From: a bacterium
Lineage (GTDB): Bacteria > Zhuqueibacterota > Zhuqueibacteria > Zhuqueibacterales > Zhuqueibacteraceae
DNA length: 64,000 bases
Assembly: GCA_044869275.1 (NCBI GenBank)
Contig: JBIOXB010000217.1
Location: forward strand, 10,095 to 74,094
Direction: 5' to 3'
A program made the position numbers and the translations under genes. The notes beneath the pieces are model-generated. The model did not search any database, was not told the origin of the DNA, and was given only the letters and a program-made list of their open reading frames with translations. Positions 6,045 to 42,548 of this stretch are shown here, one piece after another. Within the stretch, counting starts at the first letter, position 1; each line of letters starts with the position of its first letter.

Positions 6045-6350
6045 TCAAGGTGCGGTTCGCGGCCGTTTTCGAGCCACTTTGGATTTCGGCGCTTTTCGTG
6101 GGGCGGGATTTTCTTGTGCCCTTTTCTCTTGGGGAGGTGCTGCCTCAAGCCGCGCCAGCGCAGGCGGGGCGTAGGATTTATTCTCGACGATTTTGCCGTC
6201 GCGCACGAGATATTTGTCCAGCGCAAATGTCGTCAAAAAATCGTCTGGGAGTTCTTCACGCGCGACGTGGAGCACCCGCCCGCCGGATGCCGTTCCGGGT
6301 TTTGTGCTGCAAGATAGGACACGGCCCTTTGCATCGTATTTGATTTCCAT
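6045..6350 (-). CDS. small fibre-associated protein, DUF2977-like
   Basis: LPDDFLTTFALDKYLVRDGKIVEN resembles small phage proteins encoded after tail-fibre genes; last gene of the operon; GCAGGTG RBS-like site. Confidence 0.55.
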   Translation of the reverse strand: MEIKYDAKGRVLSCSTKPGTASGGRVLHVAREELPDDFLTTFALDKYLVRDGKIVENKSYAPPALARLEAAPPQEKRAQENPAPRKAPKSKVARKRPRTAP

Positions 6351-6392
6351 CGCACCTGCCAGAATTTATGCGGGTCCGCTCTTTCGAGCCTT

Positions 6393-9300
6393 TTATCCCA
6401 CCAAGATTTTCCGCACGAGGTCACCTGCGGATGAAATCCATAAATGTGTGCCGTCAAAAGCCGCGCTTTGCGGAACCCCGGGCAAGGCCAGGGTGCCCAA
6501 GTTGGCATTTGTATCCACGTCTGCCTTGTGTAAGATGCCTTCCACCACGCCGGAATTGCTTTGCCGCTGCGCCAAGAGCCACATGTTCCGGCCGTCGAAA
6601 ACCAGGTCATGGCTATCCGGAAAAACCTCCTCCGGCTGTTGGGTCAATACTCGGCCGTTGACCTCGATCTTGTAAACCGCCTGATCACCCGAGTCCGATT
6701 GACAGGCCACCCAAACATGCGCGCCGTCAAAGGCCATTGCCACCGGGGTGGCAATCAGATTGGTATTGAGCGGCGCTGCTTCTTCCTCGACGTTTCTGAT
6801 CTGGAAAAGTCGCCGCGCCGCATCTCTTTCTGCACCGATCCAAACTTGGACGCCGTCAAAAACAAGAGCCGTTGGCGTGAAACTGGCACCGCCTTCACGC
6901 AGGCTTTTGTTCACGATAACCTCGGGGTCTTCCGTATCGACGATTCTTACGGTCGCAGAGCCTCTATTCGCAATCCAAAGATACCTGCCGTCGAATACGA
7001 TTTCGCGAGGCTCGGAAAAATCTCTATCCAAACGCGTAACCACAGTTGCGGTGGCCGGATCGATTGCAAAAACTGAATTTCCCTCGGGCGAAGTGAACCA
7101 GACGTGCGTGCCGTCAAATGCGCCGCGCCACGTTCTTGCACCCACCGCAATCGGGAGGCCACCGCCAGGATCGGTTGTGTCCAAGCCTATCCTGGTGAGA
7201 GTCGAAGTCCTTGCGCTCGCGACCCAAATCGTGCGGCCATCGAAGACGAGGCCGGCAGGCGAGGAGGCTTCGAAAAAATAATTCCTGCCGTCGCGATAAG
7301 GCAGGCAGGGCAGCGTTTGCGCCAGTAAAGGCACAAACTGACGGCGATCGCGATGGGCGGCAGCGATCTTTCTGTTGCCGGCATTCAGGGCCTCTGCAAC
7401 CGTTCGTGGGATTTCGCCTTCCGCCAGGCCGGCCGTGCAGGCGGGCGTGAACGGAATGCGATCGGCCTTCAGCTCGCAAAGCAGGTTGTTCAGAATGAAT
7501 TCAACCGTGGCGGGGCCACCGGGCAGCCATTGCGGCAGCATCGCGGCGTGAAAGAGCGATTGCACCGTGGCCTCGCCATTGCCGCACGCCGGGATTTGAT
7601 AACCGATATGGCGCGCCTGGATGTTGCAAATCTCATTCAGGGCATCAGCGACGGTTTCAGTCTCTGGAGGATAAAGTTCGTTGGCGCATTCGGGCGGTCT
7701 ATAGGAAACATTGTCCGCGAAGCTGAGATTGGCGTTAAAGGAAATGGGCAAGTGCGCACATTGCTGATCATCCAGCCACAGTGTCGCGCGCACTTGCTGG
7801 CTAGGTGTGATGGCATCCAGGATCCAGCGGCAGCTCGCCACGCCGGCGCCACAGTCCTTGCCGTCCTCCGTGCGGCGCACTCTGGTTTCGGTTTCGAAAA
7901 CACGGCCACCACCCCCTTCTCCGATACTGCCGTTGCCATCCGTGATTTCAAACCTTACGCGCAAACCGCCTATGGGTTGATCTGCGCGCGTCACGCCAAC
8001 TTTGAGGGGATATGGCAGCGGTTGGCCGGGCAAAGCTTCCTGCCCGTCGCCGCCGAGATAAAAGAAATTAAGTTGTTCCGCCAGCGGTGTAAAAATCTCC
8101 CGGCAATCTTTCTTAACCTCCCAACCAGTGCTGGAGAGTTGCAGCACGGCCAGGCGGCAGTAGTGATGATGAATGCCGTGTCTGTCCTGAAAGTAGGAAT
8201 TGCCATTTTCATCGCGCGGCCAGTCAATACCGTCGTTGGCGGTGCGGGCCGGGATTAGCCAGTAGTCGCCGGTGTGATATGAATCGACGGACACAAATTG
8301 AACTTCGATGCCGTCCTCTAAGGAATGCCAAACGCCTCCTTCTATGCTTGGCAGGGCCGTTTCACTGTCGTTGATCTGCGTCGGTGTGGCGATGATCTCG
8401 GCGGCTTCTCGTTGATCCCACCGGCGCACCTTCCGGCCGGGACCGGTTGGAATCGCGGCCGTGGCGGTCATGGGATCGTAGGTAAGAAAACGATCCGAGC
8501 TCACATTGACCAAGCGTACGAGCGCGCCGTTCCCCTCTCCCAATTCATGTGCGTCATCAATGATTTCGACCCATTGCCCGGCCTCGAACTTCAGCAGCTC
8601 ATCACGGCTGGGCGCGCTGAGCGTGAGTTGTCCTGTTTGGAGGTCGATCGCGTCAATGGCGCGCAGAATGCTGCCGTTGTCCCGCGACCACTTGAAGGTA
8701 GCATCGGGGTCAGGGCGAAGTTCTTTGGAGGGGCGATGAACTTCCACGCGATAGAGTTGATTTTGCGCGCGACGAAAACCGAGAGTCGAAGCCGCGGAGC
8801 AGAGATCAGCAGCGTTTGTTGCTGGGCTAACAACGCGGGCGGCAAGGCGCACGGGGCCGCGCTCCGTCAATTTCTTCCAATCCGTAAAGCTTGGATCGCA
8901 AATCTTGTCCAACTGCAAGAGTTCAAACGGGCCGAGTGATTTCACCTGCCAGACGGTCTTGGTGCGTGTGGCGGTGTCCGCGCCGCCGAGCGCGGCTTCG
9001 CGCAGGCTGGGATCTTCGACGCTGGTGATTTGGCGTTGCCAGACGTCTAAATAGGCGAGATAAAAACCGGGCTTGGTTGGGAACGCAAGCCCGGGCAGAT
9101 CAGGTTGCTCGCCCCAAAGCAAATAGTTCTCGTTTTCACAGAGAATGCCATCGACGTAATAGCGTCCTTGGCCAATCAGCAGGGGAGGCTGGCCCCGCGC
9201 CAGCAATACTTTCAATTCGTCTTTCTCGGCTTTGCTCAGCCCCGAGAGTTGGTCGATTCTCGGCGCGTCGATCAGCTCGAACCCGGCATCATCCTTGGGT

Positions 9301-9467
9301 GCGCCGCAATGTCCAATCAAATCTGTTGTGCCGGTCGCAATGCGTTGATTGGTGATATCGACCTGCTCGTTCCAATCCGCATCGAGCTGCACGCGGCCCT
9401 GCTGCAGGCGCACGCCGCTGTAATGTTTTTCACGCTTGAAAGTGGAGCGGGTGATGTCGGATTTCAA
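6393..9467 (-). CDS. DUF6519-domain eCIS fibre-type protein with Ig-like domain and C-terminal 7-bladed beta-propeller
   Basis: N-terminal QQGRVQLDADWNEQ, NQLYRVE, FKWSRDNGS, GDYWLIPART; seven [AV]FDG..[IVLM]W repeats; TTG start with AGGAG RBS. Confidence 0.85.
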   Translation of the reverse strand: MKSDITRSTFKREKHYSGVRLQQGRVQLDADWNEQVDITNQRIATGTTDLIGHCGAPKDDAGFELIDAPRIDQLSGLSKAEKDELKVLLARGQPPLLIGQGRYYVDGILCENENYLLWGEQPDLPGLAFPTKPGFYLAYLDVWQRQITSVEDPSLREAALGGADTATRTKTVWQVKSLGPFELLQLDKICDPSFTDWKKLTERGPVRLAARVVSPATNAADLCSAASTLGFRRAQNQLYRVEVHRPSKELRPDPDATFKWSRDNGSILRAIDAIDLQTGQLTLSAPSRDELLKFEAGQWVEIIDDAHELGEGNGALVRLVNVSSDRFLTYDPMTATAAIPTGPGRKVRRWDQREAAEIIATPTQINDSETALPSIEGGVWHSLEDGIEVQFVSVDSYHTGDYWLIPARTANDGIDWPRDENGNSYFQDRHGIHHHYCRLAVLQLSSTGWEVKKDCREIFTPLAEQLNFFYLGGDGQEALPGQPLPYPLKVGVTRADQPIGGLRVRFEITDGNGSIGEGGGGRVFETETRVRRTEDGKDCGAGVASCRWILDAITPSQQVRATLWLDDQQCAHLPISFNANLSFADNVSYRPPECANELYPPETETVADALNEICNIQARHIGYQIPACGNGEATVQSLFHAAMLPQWLPGGPATVEFILNNLLCELKADRIPFTPACTAGLAEGEIPRTVAEALNAGNRKIAAAHRDRRQFVPLLAQTLPCLPYRDGRNYFFEASSPAGLVFDGRTIWVASARTSTLTRIGLDTTDPGGGLPIAVGARTWRGAFDGTHVWFTSPEGNSVFAIDPATATVVTRLDRDFSEPREIVFDGRYLWIANRGSATVRIVDTEDPEVIVNKSLREGGASFTPTALVFDGVQVWIGAERDAARRLFQIRNVEEEAAPLNTNLIATPVAMAFDGAHVWVACQSDSGDQAVYKIEVNGRVLTQQPEEVFPDSHDLVFDGRNMWLLAQRQSNSGVVEGILHKADVDTNANLGTLALPGVPQSAAFDGTHLWISSAGDLVRKILVG

Positions 9468-10840: not shown

Positions 10841-11437
10841 CTAAAGTAGCGAGTTATTGTCTTGTCGTTCATTTAACTCATTGAGCGCCTTTTTTGCAAT
10901 GTCCTGCACATCGGGGCTCTGATCACTCAGAGCCTTGTTCCAAACGTCCTGCAACCTAGGACGATTCAGTCTATACAGAGATTCGGCAGCATGGTCTCGC
11001 ACAAAAACATCATCATCTTGCAGCAATGCAATCAGTGCTTCTATAGATTGCTCCGTGTTGTAGTTACGGAGTTGTTTCGCAACTTCCTGCCTAGGGGGCC
11101 TTGAACGCTTCTTTCGATATACTTCAGCAACAAGGCAGTCGGCGATTTCCGGGCTTGAGTATTCGGCAAGCGATAACAACGCCTCTGCACGTACGTCTTC
11201 TGATTGATCAGATTCAATTGCCATGATAAGGTGAGGAATAGCTCTGTTATCATGAATCAAACCTAGATTGCAAGCTGCAGTACCTCGTACCTCTGGATCA
11301 GTGTCTGAAAGAAATGGAATAATGAGTTCAACGGCATTGCTAGGCTTTAACTCACCTATTCTATCTAAGGCGGCCTCTCTGATAGCAGCGTTCGGGTCCT
11401 GTAGATTCTGCAAAATTGCTTTCATCTCTTCTGCCAT
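10841..11437 (-). CDS. HEAT-repeat (PBS-lyase-like) protein, candidate immunity protein
   Basis: Repeated L.D.D..VR..AA..L units; AT-rich; starts 26 nt after the stop of the toxin-tipped gene; AGGTGA RBS. Confidence 0.85.
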   Translation of the reverse strand: MAEEMKAILQNLQDPNAAIREAALDRIGELKPSNAVELIIPFLSDTDPEVRGTAACNLGLIHDNRAIPHLIMAIESDQSEDVRAEALLSLAEYSSPEIADCLVAEVYRKKRSRPPRQEVAKQLRNYNTEQSIEALIALLQDDDVFVRDHAAESLYRLNRPRLQDVWNKALSDQSPDVQDIAKKALNELNERQDNNSLL

Positions 11438-11463: not shown

Positions 11464-14400
11464 TCATGTTGACCATTTTAATATTTCAGCAGGAATTAAC
11501 CCCTCGATCAAAACTTCTCCATTTTTCTCCATATCTTGTTTGACCGATCTAGCTAATCGCCTGACCTTTGGCTTGTCATGAGCAAGCATGAGTCTTTCAA
11601 CATCGTCAGGTGTATATATTTTTATAGTTCCTTTGTTCTTGAGTGCATCTAAAGCATCCAATGTTGCTTTCAAAATTCTATTTTTCTTTGTGAACTTAGC
11701 CGTACCCCTTCTAGTAATTGAGAATGAGACAAACCGGCTAGTTTGTTCACTTTGCTTCTTCCGAACATGCTCCCAAGGAGTCTGAATTTCAGCCTCTTCG
11801 GCCTCTTTACTTCCTATTTCGAACCCCAGTGGACCAGCTTTGTAATAATCATCGCCTCTAAATAGAAAACGTGAGCCAGAAGCGCTAGCTTGCTCGACTT
11901 CTTCTTTTGGTTTTAACACTTGCCCATTGCCAAGTTCACGCTCAGGGCTAAATCCAGCAACAATCTTGAAGTTATTCCGCGATTCTTGTATGCGAAGCAC
12001 TTTAAATCGGTATCTAAGCTTCAGCAGCACGAGCAAACCATTTACGATTATTTTAGGTAACCATTTTCTTAGTCTCTGTCCTAATAACTGGCGGGCTCGT
12101 TCAAATGCTCGATCCTGCCGTTCTCGCAGTCTTCGTTCTTGATCAGCCCTGCGATCTCTTCTCCGCCCACCTCTCCTCCCAAACCTCCTCCTCGCCCTCG
12201 CCCTCAACCTCCGAAATCCTCTCCCAATCCGCCTCCCCACTCTCCTCAACGCCCCTCCAACCCTCCGCGCCACGCTCCTCAATCTTTGCATAATCCGCTG
12301 CGCAATCGCGCGAAGCCGGCCAGCAACACGCCCAGCCGGCCGGCGCAAGCGGCGCAATAGCCAGTTGGCAACGAAGTCGATCACCGCAATTGCCGCAGCA
12401 GCAATGGCCTGCGCGAACTTCTGTCCGGCATTGCCGGATTTCACGGCTTTGAGGAAGGCAAAGAACTTTTCAAACGCTTGCAGGATGCGGCTCACCGTGC
12501 CCCACGCGGCCTGCAAGCCTTCGATAATCGCCATGACCGCGCCGGCAGCCAGTATTATAAGCGATACTAGTTTCTCAATCAAGATTTGAATTAATACCGT
12601 CGGGATTGCGGACTTCAGAGCTTCCCAGGCCATTTGGCCGACTTGCGCGAGTTGAATGCCGCCGTTGCGCAGAAAATTCCAAATGGCAATACCCAGACCT
12701 AAAACTTCTTCGAGCTTTTGATTGAACCAATTCTGTATCGCTGCTTTGAAAGCTGTCCACAAATGGTTGCGAACGCCATCCCAAGCAGAGGCACCGAGAT
12801 TGCGAAGCCAACGTATCGGATTAGCGGCGATATCCTTGATCAGCGCGGCAAACGCCGCCAGCGCTTGCACCACGGATTTCGCAAAGTTGATCGCGCCTTG
12901 CACGACACGGCCTACGACGTCAACCGCGGCAAGATAGGCACGCTCGAGCAGGCCCAATGCCGCATCCAAAACGGCGCCCAGAGCATTCAGCGCGCGTTGC
13001 ACATCCTCTTTCAGGCGATCCGCCAAGGCGTTGACCACGGCTTCGGCGCGATTGACACCTTCCTCAATTAAATTGCGGAAACGATCGCGCAGGCCAGGGA
13101 AGCCCGCGAGCACGACTCCTCCAATAGCGATCAGCGCCTGCCCGGCGATCCGGATAAGGCCCACCACGGCTTGCCGCGCGCGCTCGATAGCTGCGACGGC
13201 CAAACGCTTTGCTGCATCGATGGCGGCGCGCACGGCGCGGCGGGCGGCATCGAAAACCGCTTTGATGCCTTCTTTGATTCTATTGAAAAATGCCGTGGCC
13301 TGATCCGCGAGCCAGCCGAAGAAGCCGCTGGATTCCGATTCCCGTTCGCCCTCGCGGCGCTGGCGCTCCGCCTCGCGCTCAGCCCCCTGGCGCTCCTCCT
13401 CGGCGCGGCGGTTGCCTTCCTGAATGTGGCCGGCAGACTCGGTGTTGGCGCGATCTTGCTCGCGGCCAATCTCTTGCTCGTTCTGCCGCATGACGCGATC
13501 AGATTCGGCGCGGTTGCGATCCACCAGCGTGCGCTGCTCTTCTGTCCACTGCTGGCGTTGCTGTTGCACCTCTTGTTGCGCGGCCGAGCGCTCGCGCTGT
13601 TGCTCAGCAGCGTTTTGTTCTTGCAGTTGCGCGATTTCCTGGTCGGCATTGGCGCGCTCTTCCGTTACCTGGCTCTGATGCTCTTCCCGGCGCGCGGCAA
13701 CTTCACTTTGGCCCTGGCTCAGGGCATTGCTGATCTCTTCGCCGCGTTGTTCTCGCGCGATGACGGAGGCGGCAATATCCATTTCGCTCCCGCCGGCAGC
13801 TGCGCCGTTTCCTCCTGCAACTGCGGCTCCACCTCCCGCACCCGTCGTTGCCTCAGCGCCCGCCGCGCCATTGCTGCCGCTCGGAATCTGCGCCGTGAGC
13901 GTTTCATTGGGATCGACATTCGTCGGAAAGATTTCATTTTCACCCATGGGCTGCGCCGCATCTTGCAAGCCTTGCGTGTGCGCCTCGGCCATGCTGCGCT
14001 CGAGCTGAATTTGCTGTTGGCGCGCTTGCGCGGGATCGGCATTGCCCTCCAGAGCCAGCGTGGGCGTTGGACCGGCATCGACTTCCAGTCCGGAATCGCT
14101 GATGGGCAAACGGCTGATGGAAGCTTGCATGCGTTGTGCGTCGTTTGCCGTGAGCTCGCCCTGTTGATCACTGGTGACGGCAGGAGTACGCACCGCTTGC
14201 GTGGGAGAAGGCGGCGGCGCCGGCAATGGTGCCGGTTGAGGCGTGCGAACAGACTGGCCCTCAGGCGTGCGTTCGACTTGACGGAACGCGGTAGTGGAGG
14301 GCGGAGGTACGCGCTGGGCCACGGGTGCTTCATGCGTTTCGGGCGCGCCTGAGGGCCGCGGCATTTGCGGCGGATGGCTTGTCAACTCGTCGCGTTGTGC

Positions 14401-30401: not shown

Positions 30402-31646
30402 TCAAAATCTCAAGGTTGCGGTTCCGCCAAGGAAAGACTCTTGTTCTTCGCCGGGCAAAGCGCCGGGTCGTCTTTCCAGCGGAGTTCTGGCGCCGAAATC
30501 GAGCTCGAACAGGGGCACTTCACGACACGGCGCTTTGGCTGCTTCGACTGCGGAATGAACGCCGCCAATCGCGGAGACAACGTCGGCCATTCGACTGAGA
30601 TTGCCCGCCTGGGCTTCACCCGGCGCGGGAGGTGGTGCATTCTGCAAATTCAAGATCGCATCGCGCAGCGCCTCACCGGCTCTCTGCAGCGCCGCACGCG
30701 CGGCCAGGGGATTCTGAGCGCGGCAAACCGTGCGTGTGGTTTCAATTCTCAAACCGGCAGAGGCCGTGCGATCACCAACGTCGACGCCGGCGCGCGCGGA
30801 AATGCGAACGTGTGGAATCGCATCAAGTGTGATGGAGAATGAAAAATCACCGGAAGTCCCCGCGCTCAAATTGAAAACGATGGCACGTGAGCCTTGCAAA
30901 GAAACGGGCAGTCTCATGCGCAACGAGCTGGGTAGGTCAACCGTAAATTGTGCCGGTCCGAAATTAAAGCGAAAAGTGGTAAGCTCGCTGAGATTCAATC
31001 CTCCGGACTGTGGCCTTGGCTGGGGCGGCGCGGGCTGTGCTGCCGGCACGCCATTCAATCTCAGCGCCGGTGCGCTTGCCCCGATTGCCGGCAAAGCACC
31101 TTGATGCGTCACCACATTGTTTGCGGCCAGTTGTGCTTCATGCTCATCGGTCGATTCATTTCTCGGCACAGGGCTCACGCCGGTCGCTCCCTGTGCTTGC
31201 TGAACCACGTGGGTCAGTTCATGCGCCAGCAATCTCTTTCCCGAAAGAATATTTGGTGAATATCTTCCTTCTCCAAAGACCACATCTTGTCCTACGGTGT
31301 ACGCCAAAGCATTCACCGCTTTTGCCGATTCCGTCGCTTTGGCATTGGAGTGCACACGCACTCTGCTGAAATCATGCGCAAATCGCGATTCCATAAAAGT
31401 TCGCGTATCCCGATCCAGCGGCTGTCCCGGCGAGTGTAACACCTCCTCCACGATCGGCGGCACGCTCGTTGGCACGGCGCCGTTTGTAGATCGTCTTTGC
31501 AGACGCTTACCGCGGCATTCTTCGCATTCGCCCGCCAACCCAGCCGAGCCGCCGCAAGCACATTTGCGTTGCAGCAGGCCGCGCGGCACGGGTGTGAAAG
31601 AAGAGGGCGTGCTCGGTTTTAACTCGGTTTGAAATTGCGCATTCAC
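30402..31646 (-). CDS. DUF4157 (eCIS core) protein, 414 aa, with unknown C-terminal domain
   Basis: LQRKCACGG...ECEEC leader; SPGQPLD...FAHDFSRVRVH...ALAYTVGQDVVF...LLAHELTHVVQQ. Confidence 0.88.
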   Translation of the reverse strand: MNAQFQTELKPSTPSSFTPVPRGLLQRKCACGGSAGLAGECEECRGKRLQRRSTNGAVPTSVPPIVEEVLHSPGQPLDRDTRTFMESRFAHDFSRVRVHSNAKATESAKAVNALAYTVGQDVVFGEGRYSPNILSGKRLLAHELTHVVQQAQGATGVSPVPRNESTDEHEAQLAANNVVTHQGALPAIGASAPALRLNGVPAAQPAPPQPRPQSGGLNLSELTTFRFNFGPAQFTVDLPSSLRMRLPVSLQGSRAIVFNLSAGTSGDFSFSITLDAIPHVRISARAGVDVGDRTASAGLRIETTRTVCRAQNPLAARAALQRAGEALRDAILNLQNAPPPAPGEAQAGNLSRMADVVSAIGGVHSAVEAAKAPCREVPLFELDFGARTPLERRPGALPGEEQESFLGGTATLRF

Positions 31647-31894
31647 TGCTTCATGCCTCCGAATACCGCTTGGCCGATTTGGGCACCAAGGTTTTCCGCT
31701 GGCGCGTGCGGAGTCACCTGAAACTCGCCGCCATGCAAATGCAAATGATCACCCGCGTGCTGCAATAGAGCGGGCGTGCCCTGCGTGCTCATGAGTCTCG
31801 TCAATTCTTGCATGATGGCGTCTCGAATCAAATAACGATCCGCATAACCAAAGCCGTGGAGCCTGAGCTCTTCAATGTTGATCTCTATGTTCAT
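31643..31894 (-). CDS. small eCIS-associated hypothetical protein
   Basis: MNIEINIEELRLHGF...LGAQIGQAVFG, a pattern seen next to eCIS ATPases; ATGA overlap with the next gene. Confidence 0.75.
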   Translation of the reverse strand: MNIEINIEELRLHGFGYADRYLIRDAIMQELTRLMSTQGTPALLQHAGDHLHLHGGEFQVTPHAPAENLGAQIGQAVFGGMKQ

Positions 31895-34031: not shown

Positions 34032-35579
34032 TCAGGCCGACACCGTCCGGCTCTTGCTCAAGATGCTATTGGCCGAATCGAAAGTATAGCCTGTCTTTTC
34101 GATGTTCGTAACTGTCAAAACATAAACGCCGAAACCGTCGATCGCTTCGAACCAAGCGTAGCCGTTCTCGTCGGTGTGATCGGTTTGATCTTCGCGCGTG
34201 CCGTCCGGGAATGTCCATTGCGCCGAAACCAGTGCGTTTTGCATGCGCGCGCCGGTGCGATCCTTGACGGTGACGCGTGCCGGCACCCTCGCCTGGGGGC
34301 CTTCCACCTGAACGTTTTCAAACGAAATATCATCGGAAATCAGCGGATTGCCGGGCACCTCCAGCGTTTTGAACGGAACGCTGCCGGCTTGATCGAAGTA
34401 GAAGCCCGGCTTGGATACTTCTTTTATCGACAGAACATAGGTGCCGCGCTGCTCGCTGGAGAACTCCAGCCAGGCATAGCCGTTGCCATCAGTGTGGTCG
34501 TCGGTTTGCAAATGTTTGCTGGCATCAGGAGATGTCCATTCCACCGTCACGGCAGCGCCCTCCACGCGCGCGCCGGTGCGATCTTTGATCGTAACCCGGC
34601 CGCGAATGTCTACGGAGCTGCCGCGATCGTCGAACTCGAAGTAAATGTCATCTGCGATCAATGGCTCGCCGGGCGCGACAATGCTCTGGCGCAGTACGCT
34701 GTTATTCGCATCGAAGGTGAAGCCGGTTTTGGCAACTCCGGTGACATTCAAGGTATAGGAACCGGGGCCGTTGGTGGCCGTGAACGCCGCCTCTCCCGCG
34801 CTATCCGTCGGCGCCGTTTGGTTGTGCGGCACGGAGACACCGGGTAGATTCCAAAACCCGGCCACGACTGCGCCGGGCACGGGATTCTGGTTGTCGTCCA
34901 CCACCATGACGCGCGCGCGAATGCTAAATTGATCGTTGAGCGGTGTGACCTCGAAGTCGATCCGGGTGGTGCGCATGCGATTGAGTGCCGGGACGATGAT
35001 GGTCGCTTCCAGGCGACTGTGCTCATGATCGAAAACATAACCCGCTTTATTGATGGTATTGATGTGGAAAACGTAGGCGCCTCGCCCGTTGGGGAGCGAG
35101 AAGCGGACAATGCCACCAGGGTCTGTTGCTTGGGATTGATTTTGCGTGGAGCCTTCCGGCAAGGTCCAAAGGGCTGCCACTTGCGCGCCAGGCACCGTCA
35201 CATTGTTTTGATCCTTCACCGTAACTGCGCTCTGCACCGTGATCGCGCTGCCCTCGCCGGTAAAGGTCAATTGAATGTTCGTGGCGATCAAGCGGCTGGG
35301 CGGAGGCGCTGCTCCGATTCTCAGCTTGAGCGTTTTCGGTTTCTTCGTCTCCGAATCGAGAGACACGCTTTCAACCTCATCGACCTGCAAGCGCACTACA
35401 TACTCCCCCGGTGCAACATCACTAACGGGAATTTCGATCGGCCGGCCGGCAACCGGCGGCAGGGCGGGGAAGCGATAGAAGCGCGGCGGCTGGCTGGCGT
35501 CAGATGAAACTTCATTGAGCAACAATACAATACGTTGCTGCACCGTGGCTTGGGGGTTTAGATTTATGAGTATTTTCAT
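34032..35579 (-). CDS. C-terminal continuation of the DUF4255 protein with four Ig-like repeats
   Basis: Four ~105-aa repeats V.V.D....V.GA.V...W..P...TD..G...F...G.Y.L....K.G..FD...S; ATG 1 nt after the upstream stop. Confidence 0.75.
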   Translation of the reverse strand: MKILINLNPQATVQQRIVLLLNEVSSDASQPPRFYRFPALPPVAGRPIEIPVSDVAPGEYVVRLQVDEVESVSLDSETKKPKTLKLRIGAAPPPSRLIATNIQLTFTGEGSAITVQSAVTVKDQNNVTVPGAQVAALWTLPEGSTQNQSQATDPGGIVRFSLPNGRGAYVFHINTINKAGYVFDHEHSRLEATIIVPALNRMRTTRIDFEVTPLNDQFSIRARVMVVDDNQNPVPGAVVAGFWNLPGVSVPHNQTAPTDSAGEAAFTATNGPGSYTLNVTGVAKTGFTFDANNSVLRQSIVAPGEPLIADDIYFEFDDRGSSVDIRGRVTIKDRTGARVEGAAVTVEWTSPDASKHLQTDDHTDGNGYAWLEFSSEQRGTYVLSIKEVSKPGFYFDQAGSVPFKTLEVPGNPLISDDISFENVQVEGPQARVPARVTVKDRTGARMQNALVSAQWTFPDGTREDQTDHTDENGYAWFEAIDGFGVYVLTVTNIEKTGYTFDSANSILSKSRTVSA

Positions 35580-35580: not shown

Positions 35581-36573
35581 TCATTCCCCTACCATAGCCG
35601 ACTGCAACTCGGGCCGAAGTATGAAAGCGGCGAGATTCGATTCCAGCACGTGATGCGGCTCGTTATTGGGCGGAAATAGAATCGAATGCACAATCTGGAC
35701 AACGTGCCGGCCGGTTTGCAACTGTCCCTTCAACGTAGTGGCGTCCAGGTTGAATTTGATTCGCGTGTCGTTGAACTCTACAAACAAGTCCGAGGGAATG
35801 ACCTCAGTGTTGAAACGCACAAAAGTGGTGTCGCGCCGCAGCCCTTGGCCGGACAGAACCAAAATATCTCCGGCGACGATGGGTTGGTTTTCCAGCGCCT
35901 CCGCCTGCGGGCCCTTTTGCGAGAGAATTTTGTCAATCACCGGCGGCATGTCCGTGCCATGCACGTTGCGTTCCAACACCGGCACGGCCGCGCGCGGCGC
36001 CTCTTTGCCTTCGATCAAAACCACCGAGGCTTGATAGGCGATGGAAATGCGGTAGGCGGTTTGAAAAAACACCGACCACAATTTCGACAGCTCCTCCAAA
36101 TTCAAAACGATGGGAGAGAATTTGACGCGCTCGGGCTGCTCAGCCAGGTTCGAGGGAGTGAGAAAATGATCCGGGTTTCCGCCCGTGACGGCGGCGAGCG
36201 CGCCCACAATGTCTTGGCGCGTCAGCACCGCGTGGGCCTGCAGCGTGCGCAGCACACTGCCGAGCAGGCGCTGCGGCACCCATTCATTCTCATTGCCGAA
36301 AAACGTCAAGAGATAATGCAAATCCAGAGCGGCTTGCGCGCGTTTCACGACTTGACCTTCGCTGTCCCGCGTCGGCAAATCTGCGTTGCGATATGCCGCG
36401 TTGGGCGTGACCTGGTACAAATAGAGATTGACCACCGGTTGCGCCAGCCCGCTTTCCAAATCTTCCGGCCTTTCCGTTCTGACGTCTGCGCCCGTGACGT
36501 CTTCTCGTACCGCGCGGCGCAAAAGATCTGCGAGACTCGCCGTGACCGTGGCAATCGCCAAAAAATTGCTCAT
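35581..36573 (-). CDS. DUF4255/Pvc16 tail terminator (cap) protein
   Basis: MSNFLAIATVT, VNLYLYQV.PNAAYRN, LDLHYLLT, LEELSKLWS, SIAYQASVVLIE. Confidence 0.9.
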   Translation of the reverse strand: MSNFLAIATVTASLADLLRRAVREDVTGADVRTERPEDLESGLAQPVVNLYLYQVTPNAAYRNADLPTRDSEGQVVKRAQAALDLHYLLTFFGNENEWVPQRLLGSVLRTLQAHAVLTRQDIVGALAAVTGGNPDHFLTPSNLAEQPERVKFSPIVLNLEELSKLWSVFFQTAYRISIAYQASVVLIEGKEAPRAAVPVLERNVHGTDMPPVIDKILSQKGPQAEALENQPIVAGDILVLSGQGLRRDTTFVRFNTEVIPSDLFVEFNDTRIKFNLDATTLKGQLQTGRHVVQIVHSILFPPNNEPHHVLESNLAAFILRPELQSAMVGE

Positions 36574-37490
36574 CGCCGCCCTCCTTGGCGTTGCTTCAAG
36601 TAGTCTTCTAATGAAAGCCGCGGACTTGGTGGAGTCCGCTTGCGGGCGACAGGCTCGGGCGGAATGACGGCCCGCACTTCGATGCGGCCGATGTTCACTC
36701 GAATCGTGGGCGCGGGTTGGGAGACAGGCGCAGAAACGTCCTCCGTAACTGCCGGCGAAGTTCTGTCAAGAAAGGAGGGCATGACCAGGGGTTCAAAAGA
36801 TGCCTTCGCTGCCGGAGTTCGGGCCGTCTCAAATGGGTTTGTCGTTGGGGCTTGCACAGGCATCACCGCGATCGCGTCTCCGCGCTGGCCGGCAGTCACC
36901 GTTGGAAGCGGTTGATTTGGTGAAGCCGTTACCTCGGAGAAAGATTCGAGCGTTGCTGTTCTTGTATTAACCGAAGCAAGCGCCGCCAGTGCAGCTGGCT
37001 TCGCAGCAGCAGAACGGGCGTGATCGCGAAGCGTATCTGAAAACGTATGCGCCGGTAAATGCTCTTCGTTTGCTTGCCGCTCTTCAGGTGAGGTTGGCTG
37101 CTGTGAAGCGCTTCGAGACGAGGCCGCATCTGTCAGGTCCTGCGCTGCGGTTCGATTTCGTGCCGGTGTTAAAATGGACTGAGGGGCAGCCGTTGTTGGC
37201 CTTGCCAAATTCTGCAAGGCATCAAATCCCGCCCCACGGTTTTCGCCTTTCGCCGTTTTCATGCGGAGTTCAGGCTCAGGCGCTGGTGACGGTGCTGGCG
37301 TTCTCGCGGGCACTTCCATTTCCATCTCTTGCCATGGCGGCTCGTCACTGGGAAGATCGCTGGGGCTGCGCAGAAATGTCGCCTCTGCAACGGGCGAGTA
37401 CGGCGAGCCAAACATCGGCGCGAAGCGAGGTTGTATCGTCCGGGCGGGCGTCATCGTTCTGGAGACCAAATTGCTCAGAAAGTCGCTCAT
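36570..37490 (-). CDS. low-complexity eCIS-associated protein with conserved termini
   Basis: Start at MSDFLSNL (ATG 37490, ATGA overlap); C-terminal PTIRVNIGRIEVRA...LSLEDYL. Confidence 0.7.
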   Translation of the reverse strand: MSDFLSNLVSRTMTPARTIQPRFAPMFGSPYSPVAEATFLRSPSDLPSDEPPWQEMEMEVPARTPAPSPAPEPELRMKTAKGENRGAGFDALQNLARPTTAAPQSILTPARNRTAAQDLTDAASSRSASQQPTSPEERQANEEHLPAHTFSDTLRDHARSAAAKPAALAALASVNTRTATLESFSEVTASPNQPLPTVTAGQRGDAIAVMPVQAPTTNPFETARTPAAKASFEPLVMPSFLDRTSPAVTEDVSAPVSQPAPTIRVNIGRIEVRAVIPPEPVARKRTPPSPRLSLEDYLKQRQGGRR

Positions 37491-38221
37491 CGTCTCACCA
37501 TGCTTAAATAATAATGACGACGCCAAGGACTCATCGTCAAGATATCCGCTTCGCGCCAGCCATAGGCAGAAGCCAGCACATGCACCTCGTGCAGCAGGCG
37601 TTGCGCCCATGTCTGAATCTCAAGCCAGAGAAAGGATACGATGTCAAAGCTCGCGCGCCAACGATGATCGCACGACACGCAGGCCACCTCGAGTTGCACA
37701 TCGGCCTGGGGATCCTGCTGCGCCATTTTAGCCACTACCGCGTCCACCACCTGCGCGGGCAACTCTGCCGGAGACTTTTCCTCGCCGCACCAGTGCGTTC
37801 GCAAGAGACAGCGCTGCAGCAAAATCTCGCGACTCGCTGGCCTCTCCTCGAGTTCTGCAAGAGCTTGCAGGTCGTTGCTGTTGGGCAGACGAAACAACAG
37901 TTCATAGCCTTCGAGGCGCAATTCGCAAAGCTCGTCATTGCCCGTCGTTGGCGTGAGCAGGAGATCGGTGGTATTAAAAGTGATCTCCAAACGCGCGCTG
38001 CAAGCGGGGCAGGTGGCCATACTGGCCATTTGCGGCCCGAACAGCCGTTCGCGCAGCCTGAGCAATTGGGCGTCCCGTTGGCCGATGCTGAGCCGGGCGA
38101 GCTCTGCCAAATCTGCTTCCGGCTGAGCGATCGCCAGCAAGGCCAGGCCGCGCTGCACCATGTTTTGCGTTTGCCCTCGTTCCCAAACGCGCAATAGCTC
38201 CGGCGTGGAAAGCGTGCGCAT
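37487..38221 (-). CDS. T4 gp26-like baseplate hub/tube assembly chaperone with DUF6760-like C-terminus
   Basis: CPAC and CVSC pairs, FRLP, EVHVLASAYGWREADIL.M. Confidence 0.75.
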   Translation of the reverse strand: MRTLSTPELLRVWERGQTQNMVQRGLALLAIAQPEADLAELARLSIGQRDAQLLRLRERLFGPQMASMATCPACSARLEITFNTTDLLLTPTTGNDELCELRLEGYELLFRLPNSNDLQALAELEERPASREILLQRCLLRTHWCGEEKSPAELPAQVVDAVVAKMAQQDPQADVQLEVACVSCDHRWRASFDIVSFLWLEIQTWAQRLLHEVHVLASAYGWREADILTMSPWRRHYYLSMVRR

Positions 38222-38227: not shown

Positions 38228-38755
38228 TCATCCTGCCGGCTCGGTGAACGTCGGCTCGGTGGGCTCGGCCACTTCGAGGTCGCGCTCCCAACCCTCGTTC
38301 TCCAGTTTGAGCATTTGAATCGCGACGGCGTTGGCATTGGCGTCGAGATCCGGCATGGCTTGAAACTCCGACACCCAGCAGCGAAACACTTTGTAAGCGA
38401 TCACCACTTGCCCGGCTTCGTTGTACATTTCAATAATGAGGTCTTTGCGGAAATCCTTGAGCGAAACTTCCGCACCCAGGCCGGAACCGAAATTCCACAC
38501 CTTATTCGCCCATTTTTCAAACTCGATGTCGTGCGTGACTCCGCGTTCGAGCGTGACCGGCTCATACTTGGTGCGGCCGGGCGACTTGCGGCTGAGGCTG
38601 GGATCGCCGCCCTCGCGATGTTCGACCACCTCGGTGGTGCGCTTCAGCGCGCTGATCTTGCTCACGCCGGCGACGTATTTGCCATCCCACTTGACCCGAA
38701 ATTTGAAATTCTTGTACGGATCGAAGCGCTGTGCATTGACGGTGAATTGAGCCAT
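38228..38755 (-). CDS. tail tube protein (T4 gp19-like)
   Basis: DPYKNFKFRV, HREGG, PGRTKYEPVTLERG, ANAVAIQMLKL. Confidence 0.95.
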   Translation of the reverse strand: MAQFTVNAQRFDPYKNFKFRVKWDGKYVAGVSKISALKRTTEVVEHREGGDPSLSRKSPGRTKYEPVTLERGVTHDIEFEKWANKVWNFGSGLGAEVSLKDFRKDLIIEMYNEAGQVVIAYKVFRCWVSEFQAMPDLDANANAVAIQMLKLENEGWERDLEVAEPTEPTFTEPAG

Positions 38756-38833: not shown

Positions 38834-40522
38834 CTAAGCTTCAATCTGACCCGCCATTTGTTGAATCTTGATGATCACGAACTCAGCAGGCTTGAGCGGT
38901 GCAAAACCGACGACAATGTTGACGATGCCGAGATTGATGTCGTTCTGCGTCGTGCTCTCCTTGTCGCATTTCACATAATAGGCCTCACGTGGCGAGCGGC
39001 CCTGAAACGCGCCCTGGCGAAACAGATTCTGCATGAAGGCGCCTACATTCAGTCGAATCTGCGCCCATAAGGGCTCATCGTTCGGCTCGAATACCACCCA
39101 CTGCGTGCCGCGGTAGAGGCTCTCTTCGATGAAAAGCGCGGTACGCCGCACCGGAATGTATTTCCATTCCGAAGCGAGGCGGTCATTGCCTTGTAATGTG
39201 CGCGAGCCCCAAACCACGCGACCGGCAGCCGGCATGGTGCGGAGACAATTGATGCCGAGAGGGTTGAGCTCGCCGTTTTCATCGTCAGTAAGGGTGACGC
39301 TGAGCTGAGGCACACCATTCAATGTTGCGTCCAAGCCCGCCGGCGCTTTCCACACGCCGCGTTGCGTATCCGTACGCGCGAAGATGCCGGCCATCGCGCC
39401 GCAGGGAACGAAGTCGTCCACTTGATTGTCGCGCAAGGGGTTGCGCTGACGCAGGCGTGGGAAGAAAAGAGCTGAATTTTTGCTGTTGGTGCCGACGTCA
39501 TCCACGCCGTCCTTGGCATCATCCTTATCATTCCATACGCTGGGAGGATCGACAAGCAACATGGCGCGGCGCTTCTCGCAATAAACCGCGGCCTCGGAGA
39601 TTAACTCACTATCCACGTCTCCACTTGCAAGATAGGGCGGAATACAAAGCAGATTGAAGAGGTCGGCGTGTTCCAAAGCAAACAAGCCTTTCTTTTGACT
39701 TTCAGCATTAACCGGAGTAAAGTCAGCTGCTTTTGTCAGCGCTATTCCATTCGAAACCGCAACAGCACGTGCTTGTTTAGCAGCCGCAATTTCATCCTCC
39801 TTCGCTGTGATCGCAGTCGGGTTTTTCGGAACGGCGCGCTTGAGCACAGCCAACTCCTTTTCCAGAGTGGTCACATTGTCGCTTTTGGTGCCATCTGCGT
39901 CCATAGCTGGAATAGCAGGTGGTGTTGCAGGGTAGGCGCCATCCCAAATGACTAGTCTGGACTCTTCCTTCAAAACCTTGTCGATCCGTCGCGGGCTGTC
40001 TTTGGTTGAGAGATTGAGAAAGCGCTCGATGACGCCCGAAGGGCCGGCATCGCGAACGGTGAGATTGAAAATATCCGCCTGCGTCAATCCCATGCGCTCC
40101 GCGAGCTCTTTCGAAACATCATTATCAATTGTCGCGCGAAGATGCATGCCCCATCTACCTTTGTAAGTCGCTTCCATCGCAATCGTGCCGATGGCCAACT
40201 TACTCTTTGAGGCTATGGGGAGAACCGGTGGGGTCACGTTGGGATCTCCCGGATCGTCGTGAAACAGGCGAACCACGATGCCCTGGCTGCCGCCATTGAG
40301 ATAAAAATCCCGGACGGCATAACCAAGCGAACTATCAACCCATAGCCCGCCAAAGATGCGTTCGAAATCGCCATAGCTATTGATCGTGACGGCTGTGTCT
40401 GTGGGCCCGCGCAACGCTCGGCCAATAAACGCTGTTATCGACGTCGCCACGCCGGTGATGGTACGCACCCCGCTGGGAATCTCTTCAATGTAAACACCCG
40501 GATAAGTTGGATTGACTGGCAT
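38834..40522 (-). CDS. contractile tail sheath protein
   Basis: YPGVYIEE, RGVWKAPAG, VVWGSRT, WVVFEPND, GFAPLKPAEF; ATG 40522 with GGAGG RBS. Confidence 0.97.
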   Translation of the reverse strand: MPVNPTYPGVYIEEIPSGVRTITGVATSITAFIGRALRGPTDTAVTINSYGDFERIFGGLWVDSSLGYAVRDFYLNGGSQGIVVRLFHDDPGDPNVTPPVLPIASKSKLAIGTIAMEATYKGRWGMHLRATIDNDVSKELAERMGLTQADIFNLTVRDAGPSGVIERFLNLSTKDSPRRIDKVLKEESRLVIWDGAYPATPPAIPAMDADGTKSDNVTTLEKELAVLKRAVPKNPTAITAKEDEIAAAKQARAVAVSNGIALTKAADFTPVNAESQKKGLFALEHADLFNLLCIPPYLASGDVDSELISEAAVYCEKRRAMLLVDPPSVWNDKDDAKDGVDDVGTNSKNSALFFPRLRQRNPLRDNQVDDFVPCGAMAGIFARTDTQRGVWKAPAGLDATLNGVPQLSVTLTDDENGELNPLGINCLRTMPAAGRVVWGSRTLQGNDRLASEWKYIPVRRTALFIEESLYRGTQWVVFEPNDEPLWAQIRLNVGAFMQNLFRQGAFQGRSPREAYYVKCDKESTTQNDINLGIVNIVVGFAPLKPAEFVIIKIQQMAGQIEA

Positions 40523-40556: not shown

Positions 40557-40844
40557 TTATTTGCGTTGATTGCGGCGCCGCAAGTGCTTCAAAATTTTCT
40601 CGATTTGTTCCTGCACAACGGATTCTGCCACCGTTTGAGCCAGGCAATAGATCCGGCCTCGTTTCTCCATCACGCCCGCTGCAATGAGCAGCAAGAGTGC
40701 ACGTTCGACGACTTCTTCCGATTCTCCCACCCACCACTGGGCAATACCGTGCGTACTATCCTTGGCTTGGGGATGATCACGGAGGTAACCCAAAATCGCG
40801 GCCGCCACCCGTTTGATGCGATGATTGTCCGAAGTCCTTTTCAA
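40557..40844 (-). CDS. small winged-helix-like protein
   Basis: AILGYLRDHPQAKDSTHGIAQWW...VERALLLLIAAGVMEK helix-helix-wing pattern. Confidence 0.65.
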   Translation of the reverse strand: MKRTSDNHRIKRVAAAILGYLRDHPQAKDSTHGIAQWWVGESEEVVERALLLLIAAGVMEKRGRIYCLAQTVAESVVQEQIEKILKHLRRRNQRK

Positions 40845-40957
40845 AACCGGAAGAGACGAAAAATGTCATGACTGGTTTTGCAGTGACGTTTTGGTGTTAC
40901 GGCGATCATGCTTGATCCAAGGACCAGCTCATTTATGAGCGCGACCAAGAATGCCAT

Positions 40958-40973
40958 TGCAGGAATTGCGCCA
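40958..40973 (-). promoter_or_regulatory. sigma54 -24/-12 promoter of the eCIS operon
   Basis: Minus strand TGGCGCAATTCCTGCA = GG-N10-GC, about 115 nt upstream of the first operon gene. Confidence 0.65.
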
Positions 40974-41119
40974 TGAAGAAGCAGAATCACGGGCTGCGTT
41001 AAGCAGTTGAGTTTCTTGGGAGGTCGAGCCGGCGTGCTCAGCGCATTGTATAAGAAGATGGGGTTCCAACGTATCAGCGGATCAGGCGCGTGGAAAAACA
41101 CGCGAAGGTGGGAGGTGCG

Positions 41120-41161
41120 CAGAGTGGGGCTCAAAACCCCACTCTGGGTGTTTCCGCCCCA
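41120..41161. promoter_or_regulatory. tandem palindromes TGGG-N9-CCCA, candidate enhancer (UAS)
   Basis: 41125-41141 and 41145-41161, 20 bp apart; the first extends to a perfect 10-bp inverted repeat (41120-41146). Confidence 0.55.
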
Positions 41162-41186
41162 GTAGTGTGGAATGTGGAAGAATGCT

Positions 41187-42548
41187 TCAACTAGGCTGGC
41201 GATAATGCAGAGGATTCATGCCGTGCTTCCTGAGCAACAGCCGCAGATTTTTGCGATCGACCGCGGCCACGCGTGCCGCGGCACTGAGATTGCCTTTGGT
41301 TTCAACCATGAGGTCGGTCAGATAAATCCGCTCACAGCGTGTTACGGCTTCCTGGCGAATTTGCTTCAAAGTCGAGAGGCGGGCTGAGGTACGAGGCGCG
41401 CGAGGTGCGAAATCGTGAGCGCCCGCGAGCACATCCGCAACCCAAACTTGCACTTTATTCTCCAGCTCGCGAACATTCCCGGGCCAGTCGTAAGTCACCC
41501 AGTCTTGCATGATCTCGTCTGGCAAATGAGTGGCCGAGGACGCGCTCCCGCCGTGGCGTGACAAAAAACAACGCACCAAAGCCGGAATATCCGCCCTTCT
41601 CTCGCGCAAGGGCGGAACCAGCAGCGGAATGACATTCAAGCGATAATAGAGATCAGCACGGAAATTCTTCTGCTCTACCGCTTCGGCCAAATTCAAGTTT
41701 GTGGCTGCCAAAACGCGCACTTCCGCAGACAGATATTTCGAATGGCCCAGCGGACGATATTGCCGGTCCTGCAAAAAGCGTAGAAACTTGGCCTGCACGG
41801 CGAGCGGCAGGGCCTCCACCTCATCCAAAAACAATGTTCCACCACCGGCTTCCTGAATCAAGCCGCGGGAAGAAGAAGCCGCATCGGTATAAGCGCCGCG
41901 CACATGGCCAAAGAGCTCGTTTTCCACCAAATGCTCGGGAATGGCGCCACAATCGACCGTCACGAACGGCTGTCCGGCACGCGGGCCCAAATAATGAATT
42001 GCGCGCGCAATCAGCTCCTTGCCGACCCCCGTCTCTCCGGTGATGAGCACGGTCGAAGAGGAGTTCCCCAATTTCGGCAATTGCTGCATGATGAATCGCA
42101 TGGGCTTGCTCTTGGCCACGATCTGGCATTCGCCCATTTGTTGGCGCAGCGTCTCTTGCAAAGTGGCGATACGATCAAGCGTGTTGATGCAATGCGAAAT
42201 CTGTTCGATCAAATGGCAAGTAAACGCTTCATTTCCCGGTCGTCGCATGACTTCGTCGACACGATGCGACAGGAGCCCGGCAACTGCTTCCCAACTTTCT
42301 TCCGGAACTACCGAAATAATCAATGCCTCCGGATAATGACATCTGAGCCCGTCAACCCAATGACGCACAGAACTGAGAGTGCTGGGATATTCTATGATGA
42401 ATAGTGTTGGTTTGAAATGTTCGGGAGCGAGGAGTTTTTGCTCAGGGTCGGAAAGAGAGAAAACAGTGCATTGCGTTACTTCGCACAGAGCACGGCCAAT
42501 GCTTTTCATCAAGCCGTCGTCGTTTGCCACAAAGCCAACTTGACACAT
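41187..42548 (-). CDS. sigma54-dependent enhancer-binding protein with degenerate receiver domain
   Basis: GETGVGKE, ENELFGH, GAYTDA loop, GTLFLDE, FRADLYYRL, WPGNVREL, C-terminal Fis-type HTH; start placed at ATG 42548 (ORF track extends to 42680). Confidence 0.92.
   Translation of the reverse strand: MCQVGFVANDDGLMKSIGRALCEVTQCTVFSLSDPEQKLLAPEHFKPTLFIIEYPSTLSSVRHWVDGLRCHYPEALIISVVPEESWEAVAGLLSHRVDEVMRRPGNEAFTCHLIEQISHCINTLDRIATLQETLRQQMGECQIVAKSKPMRFIMQQLPKLGNSSSTVLITGETGVGKELIARAIHYLGPRAGQPFVTVDCGAIPEHLVENELFGHVRGAYTDAASSSRGLIQEAGGGTLFLDEVEALPLAVQAKFLRFLQDRQYRPLGHSKYLSAEVRVLAATNLNLAEAVEQKNFRADLYYRLNVIPLLVPPLRERRADIPALVRCFLSRHGGSASSATHLPDEIMQDWVTYDWPGNVRELENKVQVWVADVLAGAHDFAPRAPRTSARLSTLKQIRQEAVTRCERIYLTDLMVETKGNLSAAARVAAVDRKNLRLLLRKHGMNPLHYRQPS

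Follow-up and report, generated by a model that had tools for sequence, protein, structure and literature searches.

The window analysed here, the whole 64,000-nt stretch, carries a contractile injection system (CIS) of the extracellular type (eCIS), with a likely sigma54 switch and a predicted toxin–immunity pair of its own. The cluster comprises 25 genes, all on the minus strand, that run from 42548 down to 6045, many overlapping by 1–4 nt or separated by gaps of a few bases. Comparison of the island proteins with Pfam, PHROG and NCBIfam profiles bears out the co-oriented set listed by the first-pass annotation: sheath, tube, DUF4255 cap, ATPase, split VgrG, tip, gp25, two baseplate-J, two DUF6519 and two DUF4157 genes. 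In a genome of the same genus (G001) the two flanking genes lie only ~200 nt apart and the site is empty, so the island, ~5825-43304, is an insertion, as had been proposed from its place amid housekeeping genes; the extent first given, 6045-42548, contains all the genes but is slightly too narrow. Neither an integrase among the island open reading frames (ORFs) nor a direct repeat at the island ends was found. Each structural gene is single copy in the host assembly, which measures 6.67 Mb and is 94% complete. A genome of the same family (G016, contig C194) holds a syntenic locus with an identical order from the activator to the long fibre and matching lengths, and by this comparison the core genes are full length. 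Judged from sequence, the island is apparently a real, intact and presumably functional CIS.

A sigma54 activator encoded by the island itself likely turns on transcription, and four elements lie at the island's head:

41187..42548, minus strand: sigma54 enhancer-binding protein (EBP), 453 aa from its ATG, with an AAA+ domain and a GAYTDA loop (PF00158, E 8.5e-63; ortholog alignment)
41125..41160: two tandem palindromes, KRGG-N8-CCYM, candidate activator sites at 187 and 168 nt before the promoter
40973-40958, minus strand: sigma54 -24/-12 promoter element with GG-N10-GC spacing
40557..40844, minus strand: conserved 95-aa protein of no family, first gene of the predicted transcript

Searching with this protein retrieved 13 metagenomic loci, 11 of which carry the activator directly upstream; among these 11, nine have CIS genes directly downstream, one reaches a contig end and one has no recognised CIS gene. 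The two weak matches without an activator served as control loci. Together with the window, G016 and a third genome (G014), the 11 metagenomic loci, nine of them from one assembly, form a motif set of 14. The activator stands upstream of the 95-aa gene in 13/14 and is not seen in G014, whose contig starts there. A YGGY-N7-YTGC element lies 65–141 nt before the gene start in 14/14 loci, compared with 0/2 control loci and 2–12% of shuffles, and the palindrome is found in one to three copies in 13/14 loci (shuffle mean 0.01–0.09), clustering ~90–100 and 160–195 nt upstream of the promoter. The combination of promoter and two palindromes occurs once in the 6.67-Mb genome, at the island, and rpoN is present in the host. 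Sigma54 control, a claim that had leaned on one adjacent gene, can now point to a -24/-12 element, upstream activator sites, a GAFTGA-type activator and rpoN. The EBP is likely the dedicated activator of the island. Its GAYTDA loop is among the variants expected to remain active (PMC4641369). Its N-terminus is degenerate and receiver-like, an Asp of several orthologues being replaced by Glu, and the locus has no linked kinase gene. The 95-aa protein matches unnamed Atlas clusters at 0.93–0.94, with DsrD the nearest named one at 0.84, and may be a small winged-helix regulator, a weak lead.

A first palindrome pattern, with a 7-nt spacer, failed (1/16 regions) and was replaced by the 8-nt version, and a 97-aa ORF at 40841-41134, which overlaps the promoter and palindromes, was taken as spurious. 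Nor is the switch tied to a single gene order: at three other loci (L154, L158, L162) it stands, with activator, promoter and 95-aa gene, before CIS clusters whose first gene is that of the cap or the ATPase rather than the sheath. Reported eCIS regulators are of RfaH, GerE and BTAD types (PMC8213781), and a search over titles and the opening lines of abstracts of openly available papers turned up no eCIS described as sigma54-controlled.

At the 3′ part of the cluster lies the effector module:

11464..16773, minus strand: 1769-aa Tme-like carrier, the largest ORF, with DUF4157 at residues 162-237, an acidic disordered region, a tape-measure-like helical region and a variable tip
11464..11886, minus strand: toxin tip, a predicted R-S-E ADP-ribosyltransferase (R1639, S1683, E1753), GC content 0.405
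10841..11437, minus strand: HEAT-repeat protein, the next gene after the tip

The 1769-aa DUF4157 protein is a predicted tape-measure-like carrier with a swappable tip. Residues 1151-1451 match a PHROG tape measure (E 4e-10), and the protein has four hydrophobic segments and an Arg-rich segment of net charge +31. The annotation had noted that no stand-alone tape measure gene exists; none is present separately, but given this match the region is fused into the carrier, not absent. Among 321 carrier homologues found, the best 120 were examined and 115 could be anchored for tip analysis. Positions 1151-1500 keep 54–75% identity per 50-residue block in ~115/119 homologues, and about one aligns beyond 1650; the carrier is kept to around residue 1500 and the tips are not. 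The 115 tips fall into 34 clusters, and the 27 scanned include nuclease, Ntox15, HNH and Hint domains. The middle of the carrier has no credible match in 40 relatives.

The tip is likely an R-S-E ADP-ribosyltransferase, its enzymatic activity being predicted from the fold and these three residues. A single-sequence fold was poor (predicted local distance difference test, pLDDT, 44); the structure model reaches pLDDT 90.7. The first Atlas match of the tip is scabin/pertussis-S1/NarE-like (0.95), and the model aligns with the Rhs toxin TreX (Z 8.5, root-mean-square deviation (rmsd) 3.2, 101 residues) and with pertussis S1 (Z 8.5, rmsd 2.9, 110 residues); proteins of ADP-ribosyltransferase fold occupy nearly all 50 rows of the structural match list. 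R, S and E are invariant in 33/33 aligned tip homologues. In total 103 homologues were found, several of them ending proteins with motifs that we take to be Rhs-core-like, and no Pfam or NCBIfam model covers the family. Within the phylum 1/167 genomes has the tip, and within one cyanobacterial family 22/389; a search of 301 Corallococcus-order genomes, which had no positive control, did not detect it. Its GC content, 0.405, compares with 0.58 in the core.

The partner of the tip is conserved with it. In cyanobacterial loci a HEAT gene 51–65% identical follows the tip in 21/24 cases (20/23 distinct), the three others being one contig edge and two fragments. The modelled tip–HEAT complex scores 0.74 against 0.00 for the best control; at least 92% of contacts are shared between runs, the partner has pLDDT 89, and in the benchmark the mark is reached by 116/157 solved and 2/215 mismatched pairs. 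Modelling supports, but does not demonstrate, binding between the two. The HEAT protein is likely the cognate immunity protein, and an effector–immunity pair in turn indicates a prokaryotic target. Neither this pair nor the 1.37-kb scar region described below had been mentioned in the first-pass annotation. At one cyanobacterial locus (L188) a close carrier homologue, likewise with this tip and a HEAT gene, lies upstream of Afp7, and in others (L189-L203) tip and HEAT gene often form a short stand-alone cassette without a carrier. DUF4157 toxins with downstream immunity genes have been verified in archaeal and actinobacterial CIS (PMC11566945; PMC13277306), such toxins with long linkers or immunity genes have been described (PMC8213781, PMC3482391), and Tox-ART-RSE is a listed class among DUF4157 polymorphic toxins (PMC3482391, PMC8213781, PMC11566945, PMC13277306).

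The machine that would carry this effector is built from the following genes:

38834..40522, minus strand: contractile sheath (PF17482/PF04984; PHROG 23, E 2e-55)
38228..38755, minus strand: inner tube, single copy (PF06841, E 9e-47; TIGR02241 over cut-off)
37487..38221, minus strand: T4 baseplate-hub-like protein (PF12322, E 3e-10; PHROG 150), presumably gp26-type
36570..37490, minus strand: 306-aa Pro/Ala/Thr-rich protein of no family, C-terminal 70 aa conserved, with orthologues in G016 and G001
35581..36573, minus strand: cap or tail terminator (Pvc16_N, DUF4255; PF14065, E 6.5e-47)
34032..35579, minus strand: Ig-like repeat protein, a cap extension as separate ORF with a 1-nt gap to the cap
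32000..34030, minus strand: Afp15-type AAA+ ATPase, Walker A and B intact (profile matches)
31643..31894, minus strand: 83-aa conserved protein of no family (51% identity to the G016 ortholog)
30402..31646, minus strand: 414-aa DUF4157 protein with an HELTH motif, directly upstream of the tube initiator (PF13699, E 1e-31)
29553..30209, minus strand: Afp7-like tube initiator, CIS_tube (PF19266, E 1.4e-4, below cut-off)
29214..29507, minus strand: small baseplate protein (PHROG 7145 and 46, E ~1e-3), which we take to be LysM/gp53-like
27595..29210, minus strand: split spike, a gp27-like hub (28089-29210) and a gp5 OB-fold gene (27595-28092) (PF05954, PF04717, VgrG models)
27272..27595, minus strand: PAAR-like tip (DUF4280-like, weak; PF14107, E 0.001; 83% to G016)
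26745..27110, minus strand: gp25 wedge protein (PF04965, E 1e-18)
21191..26748, minus strand: two baseplate-J (Afp11) proteins, 866 and 986 aa (TIGR02243 over cut-off, both)
18601..21177, minus strand: 858-aa protein in the wedge/fibre-adaptor position, which is conserved in most of the best 80 related loci
16993..18591, minus strand: short DUF6519 (eBAP5) protein, anchor region only, without a receptor-binding tail (PF20129, E 2e-96)
6393..9467, minus strand: long DUF6519 (eBAP5) tail fibre with C-terminal beta-propeller repeats (PF20129, E 9e-55; TIGR02276/TIGR03866 weak; 40-nt repeat family)
6045..6350, minus strand: 101-aa fibre-associated protein (PHROG 2671 tail fibre, E 1.6e-5; DUF2977)

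By analogy the Afp15-type ATPase is likely a cargo loader, and the 414-aa DUF4157 protein is likely a second cargo or an adaptor. The long DUF6519 fibre likely binds the receptor, with the 101-aa protein as its possible chaperone. The first ~80 aa of the Ig-like repeat protein belong to the cap ORF in G016 and G001. An adaptor gene with a Tail_P2_I domain is expected of the eBAP5 group; the 858-aa protein occupies the adaptor position and gave no Pfam, PHROG or PDB match. A search by sequence returned no relatives of known structure for the carrier, the DUF6519 proteins, the 858-aa protein or the toxin tip.

The C-terminal half of the sheath shares 80%, 74% and 69% identity with cyanobacterial, acidobacterial and myxobacterial sheaths, respectively, and ~35–46% with most other CIS sheaths of its own family. 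In a sheath tree limited to the loci retrieved here, DUF6519-type sheaths form one clade (13/27 rows). The block from the baseplate genes to DUF6519 is found again in most of the 80 top-ranking loci (561 in all), across many phyla and one archaeon. Since the sheath similarities cross phyla and the block recurs in so many, the system is of a widespread, horizontally moved type. The nearest solved sheaths are 8bky/8bl4, presumably those of S. coelicolor. The island holds the genes that define the eCIS superfamily in dbeCIS, namely tube, sheath, Afp7 (below the Pfam cut-off), spike, gp25, Afp11, Afp15 and Afp16, and has neither head or packaging genes nor a linked type VI secretion system (T6SS) membrane complex. 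With two afp11 copies, a split afp8, afp10 and no stand-alone afp14, its gene content places it in lineage II, subtype IIa or IIc (PMC6899500). In that lineage afp14 is generally missing (PMC6899500), so the absence of lysis and tape-measure genes is not special here. DUF6519 is the eBAP5 fibre anchor (PMC12923769), and in the island a DUF6519 fibre gene lies downstream of the baseplate-J and adaptor-position genes, as expected of that group.

The system had been called probably uncharacterised. This does not stand: the Streptomyces davawensis CIS has the same DUF6519 and Tme make-up (BN159_7587 and BN159_7576, respectively; PMC11126660). The island carrier resembles Tme in being the largest ORF and in its DUF4157 domain, tape-measure homology, hydrophobic segments, cationic segment and predicted enzyme tip, but it does not lie immediately upstream of the tube-initiator and baseplate genes. 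On gene content and position it is classed as Tme-like and not placed in the synteny group of the S. davawensis Tme.

The effector module occupies a slot between the two DUF6519 genes. The corresponding slot of G016 is filled by a TPR gene and a carrier whose tip differs and whose middle part is unrelated, so whole carrier–immunity blocks appear to be exchanged. The arrangement is known from only two genomes, both of this family, and was seen in 0/80 other loci within 10-kb flanks. Downstream of the immunity gene lies a scarred interval:

9468-10840: scar region of 1373 nt, with two extra gene-start copies, an MNT gene, a truncated HEPN gene and an MNT relic
10100-10215 and 10367-10456: the two additional copies of the start (first ~100 nt) of the long DUF6519 gene
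9541-9867, plus strand: intact MNT gene
within 9468-10840: HEPN gene without a start
near 10578-10658: MNT relic

Duplicates of the start of the long DUF6519 gene stand just after the immunity gene both in the host (two extra; within 9361-10456) and in G016 (one extra; L014:1400-1750), and each resembles the long DUF6519 gene of its own genome, which implies separate origins. From their sequences, the duplicates read as scars of repeated insertion. They are absent from 80 other loci (0/80). Similar 5′ duplicates number 21 genome-wide, some of them paralogues, and gene-end duplicates near small insertions seem common in the host. An attC-like site was considered and rejected, the duplicates folding no better than shuffles (z -0.05 to 1.67). 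Elsewhere in the host (C77:27907-33172) an integrase-like gene lies beside a complete MNT–HEPN pair whose MNT is 72% identical to that of the scar region.

The host probably belongs to candidate division KSB1, going by one gene: the best phylum-named matches of AroB come from that division, at 55–60% identity. Sequencing runs containing this DNA come from a single study and are labelled soil metagenome, with no RNA run listed among them. Contigs of one run, possibly the one from which this DNA came, cover 3001-23000 without differences, and no strain variation in the toxin cassette was seen across four contig sets of that study, three of them patchy. The main text of PMC12210884 does not mention KSB1, and literature searches that included KSB1 gave no paper bearing the word among those listed. 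Supplements of the eCIS surveys may name KSB1 loci or sigma54 regulators.

Several features surround the core. At the left island edge (~5925-5990) lies a ~60-nt element repeated many times in the host genome and in G001, and the intergenic gaps at 27114-27280 and 31963-32000 contain short-period tandem repeats (7, 8, 14 nt). The left flank (2783-5824) encodes two outer-membrane beta-barrel plus TPR genes, and the right flank (55076-61011) a 1302-aa TPR protein, an extracytoplasmic function (ECF) sigma factor and a zf-HC2 anti-sigma. Rfam gave no match, and counts of sigma70 promoters and terminators in 5800-17100 are at chance level.

Release from the cell is the part of the system for which the island offers least. 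Profile scans of its ORFs agree with the earlier reading that it has no capsid, terminase, integrase or recognisable holin or endolysin gene, nor were T6SS membrane genes found among them. No island protein other than the carrier has a credible membrane helix, so neither a holin nor a membrane adaptor is encoded there. Lysis in trans fares little better: PF04020 holin and PF00959 lysozyme were unmatched in the host genome with controls detected, among the holin and endolysin families searched, and a search with PF05838 was uninformative, no control being detected. Four Amidase_2 genes are present in the host, all unlinked to the island. On one contig (C130:12011-15093) a membrane-anchored amidase (12640-15093), a membrane protein and an Rz-like gene (E 1e-4) stand in a row, with no prophage seen around. 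This run was rejected as a CIS lysis cassette: the middle gene occurs in 9/41 genomes, of which seven are sheath-negative, and neither G016 nor G014 yielded a copy.

Taken together, we favour, at a probability of roughly 0.55, a DUF6519/Tme-type CIS that is switched on by sigma54 and injects a toxin into competing bacteria after release from dying producers, with the HEAT protein as immunity. The activator would bind the palindromes at 41125-41160 and open the -24/-12 promoter at 40973; the motifs and their conservation are observed, the binding is proposed. Baseplate, spike, tube, sheath, cap and the two DUF6519 proteins would form the particle, as in relatives, and the ATPase would load the DUF4157 proteins, as in other eCIS, where ATPase-dependent cargo loading has been described (bioRxiv 10.64898/2026.05.27.728243). 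The propeller-tipped fibre would then bind the target, the sheath contract, and the hydrophobic and Arg-rich segments of the carrier take the tip across the membrane, where its predicted fold would ADP-ribosylate a cytoplasmic target. Release, the weakest step, would proceed without an island holin, after producer death and through functions encoded elsewhere.

A number of observations weigh against this proposal. The only characterised member of the subtype, the S. davawensis CIS, is active on the mycelium that produces it, where lysis is not evident (PMC11126660), and no release gene is linked to the island. The regulatory patterns, promoter and palindromes alike, were defined after viewing the data, the origin of most metagenomic loci in one assembly narrows their support, two positions of the window promoter are off consensus, and upstream of the G001 CIS neither the activator nor the 95-aa gene is present. 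For the toxin, a shared linker may have chained the largest tip cluster (60/115) together, the best Foldseek match (E 0.021) does not reach the 0.001 level, and Z 8.5 is barely above the level that the tool calls common. The immunity gene would also fit a cell-bound or a self-acting machine. The long fibre may be poorly expressed because the 1373 nt before it are scarred, and the cap extension is split off as its own ORF.

A rather doubtful alternative keeps the particle in the living cell, at the envelope, from where it would fire into touching neighbours like a T6SS, with the short DUF6519 protein as adaptor. The lack of lysis genes in the island fits such a machine, as does an intact tssJ-tssL-tssM trio between housekeeping genes elsewhere in the genome (C139:50511-55263), so that the reported absence of a T6SS membrane complex holds for the island but not for the host. 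TssC (PF05943) and TssK (PF05936), and with them a canonical T6SS of type i, were not found there, with a control detected, and the 94% completeness of the genome bears on their absence. G001 (contigs C289, C254) has the same trio at the same site with 88–90% identity, besides a separate complete T6SS (28–31% identity), and its DUF6519 CIS ends in the short form only. A resemblance to TssK has been reported for eBAP3, a related fibre anchor (PMC12923769), and an archaeal CIS with DUF4157 toxin–immunity pairs is membrane-bound and contact-dependent (PMC11566945). On the other side, the trio sits on another contig, without the promoter-plus-palindrome pattern of the CIS, and a PAAR-like fragment, read from sequence, follows its tssM as in a T6SS remnant, accompanied in G001 by a duplicated piece of the upstream aminotransferase gene. 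Its TssM is without the N-terminal hydrophobic stretch of the relatives' canonical copies. All 11 other TssM-positive relatives have TssK, and G016 combines a syntenic CIS with a single TssM match adjoining TssK, so the trio is not needed for this type of CIS; it is likelier a conserved T6SS remnant with another use. The island has no membrane adaptor, and its long propeller fibre suggests a receptor outside the cell. A co-occurrence of TssM and CIS (10/12 TssM-positive genomes with a sheath) is explained by canonical T6SS in the relatives. A hybrid in which the sigma54-controlled eCIS tail docks through the tail-less DUF6519 protein, in place of TssK, on the orphan TssJ–TssL–TssM, fires toxin from a living diderm cell and can do without lysis genes is improbable. 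As a separate observation, ten relatives carry a CIS-type sheath and canonical T6SS genes, a pairing reported as rare, and in G001 a T6SS accompanies at least two types of CIS.

Somewhat more doubtful than retention at the envelope is a system that hits its producer or kin, for controlled death, membrane remodelling or DNA release, with the HEAT protein holding the tip inactive until firing. The S. davawensis CIS, with a Tme of the same layout, works on its own envelope (PMC11126660), and 8bky/8bl4 are the nearest solved sheaths. Yet a word search of PMC11126660 finds immunity unmentioned, the island has a long fibre with a variable tail, and the tip has been swapped between lineages (1/167 phylum genomes, with a different one in G016), which is the pattern of inter-bacterial conflict.

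That the island is recently acquired and decaying, making no working particle, is slightly less credible even than the hybrid. The empty site in G001, the truncated HEPN gene and gene-start duplicates of the scar region and the cap extension in two ORFs would agree with decay, but the core ORFs are full length and tightly coupled, the promoter, palindromes, catalytic residues and immunity gene are intact, a duplicate of this kind stands in G016 as well and the host genome commonly shows duplicated gene ends. A prophage tail module or remnant is highly improbable: the structural genes are homologous to phage tails, but capsid PF05065 and terminases PF03237 and PF03354, the three families searched genome-wide, were not found although controls were detected, no integrase or flanking direct repeat was found, and Pvc16_N, the Afp15-type ATPase, DUF4157 and CIS_tube are eCIS markers.

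If the favoured reading of a released, antibacterial CIS holds, the locus is a candidate weapon of an uncultured, probably KSB1, soil lineage. Its gene set is ordinary, one of thousands of eCIS loci and of a subtype with a characterised member; new are the regulatory and effector parts around the known machine. Induction of the subtype in diderms would become feasible with the dedicated sigma54 switch predicted here, for which a promoter and a binding motif are defined. The tip–HEAT toxin–immunity pair lacks a family model and is shared with cyanobacteria, and the effector slot between two fibre genes seems exchangeable. Were the orphan membrane complex to anchor the tail, the island would form a bridge between eCIS and T6SS.

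Among known systems, the island shares DUF6519 fibres, two afp11 genes, a split afp8 and afp10 with dbeCIS IIa/IIc (PMC6899500) and the eBAP5 group (PMC12923769), and differs in having two DUF6519 genes that flank an effector slot. With the S. davawensis CIS it has in common a DUF6519 gene after the baseplate genes, a clade spread across phyla and the Tme layout of DUF4157, disorder, tape-measure homology, hydrophobic helices, Arg-rich segment and enzyme tip (PMC11126660), a likeness judged from gene content. In contrast to that system, the large carrier lies 3′ between the two DUF6519 genes and a 414-aa DUF4157 gene takes the Tme position; the tip is a predicted ADP-ribosyltransferase with a likely immunity partner rather than a nuclease, a long propeller fibre stands in place of a peptidoglycan-binding partner, and the host is a likely diderm with a sigma54 module. 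The tip has the predicted fold and R-S-E residues of TreX/TreTu and the pertussis, cholera and scabin catalytic domains, at 12–21% identity and without a binding subunit. Like DUF4157 (PVC-metallopeptidase) polymorphic toxins, the carrier has an N-terminal DUF4157, a long linker, a variable C-terminal toxin and a downstream immunity gene, whereas its tip has no family model and a HEAT pairing does not appear in the cited passages on those toxins. Finally, RpoN controls T6SS clusters, for example in Vibrio cholerae (PMC3439928); there, as probably here, a cluster-linked sigma54 activator (EBP) drives a contractile machine, which in the island is of the eCIS type.

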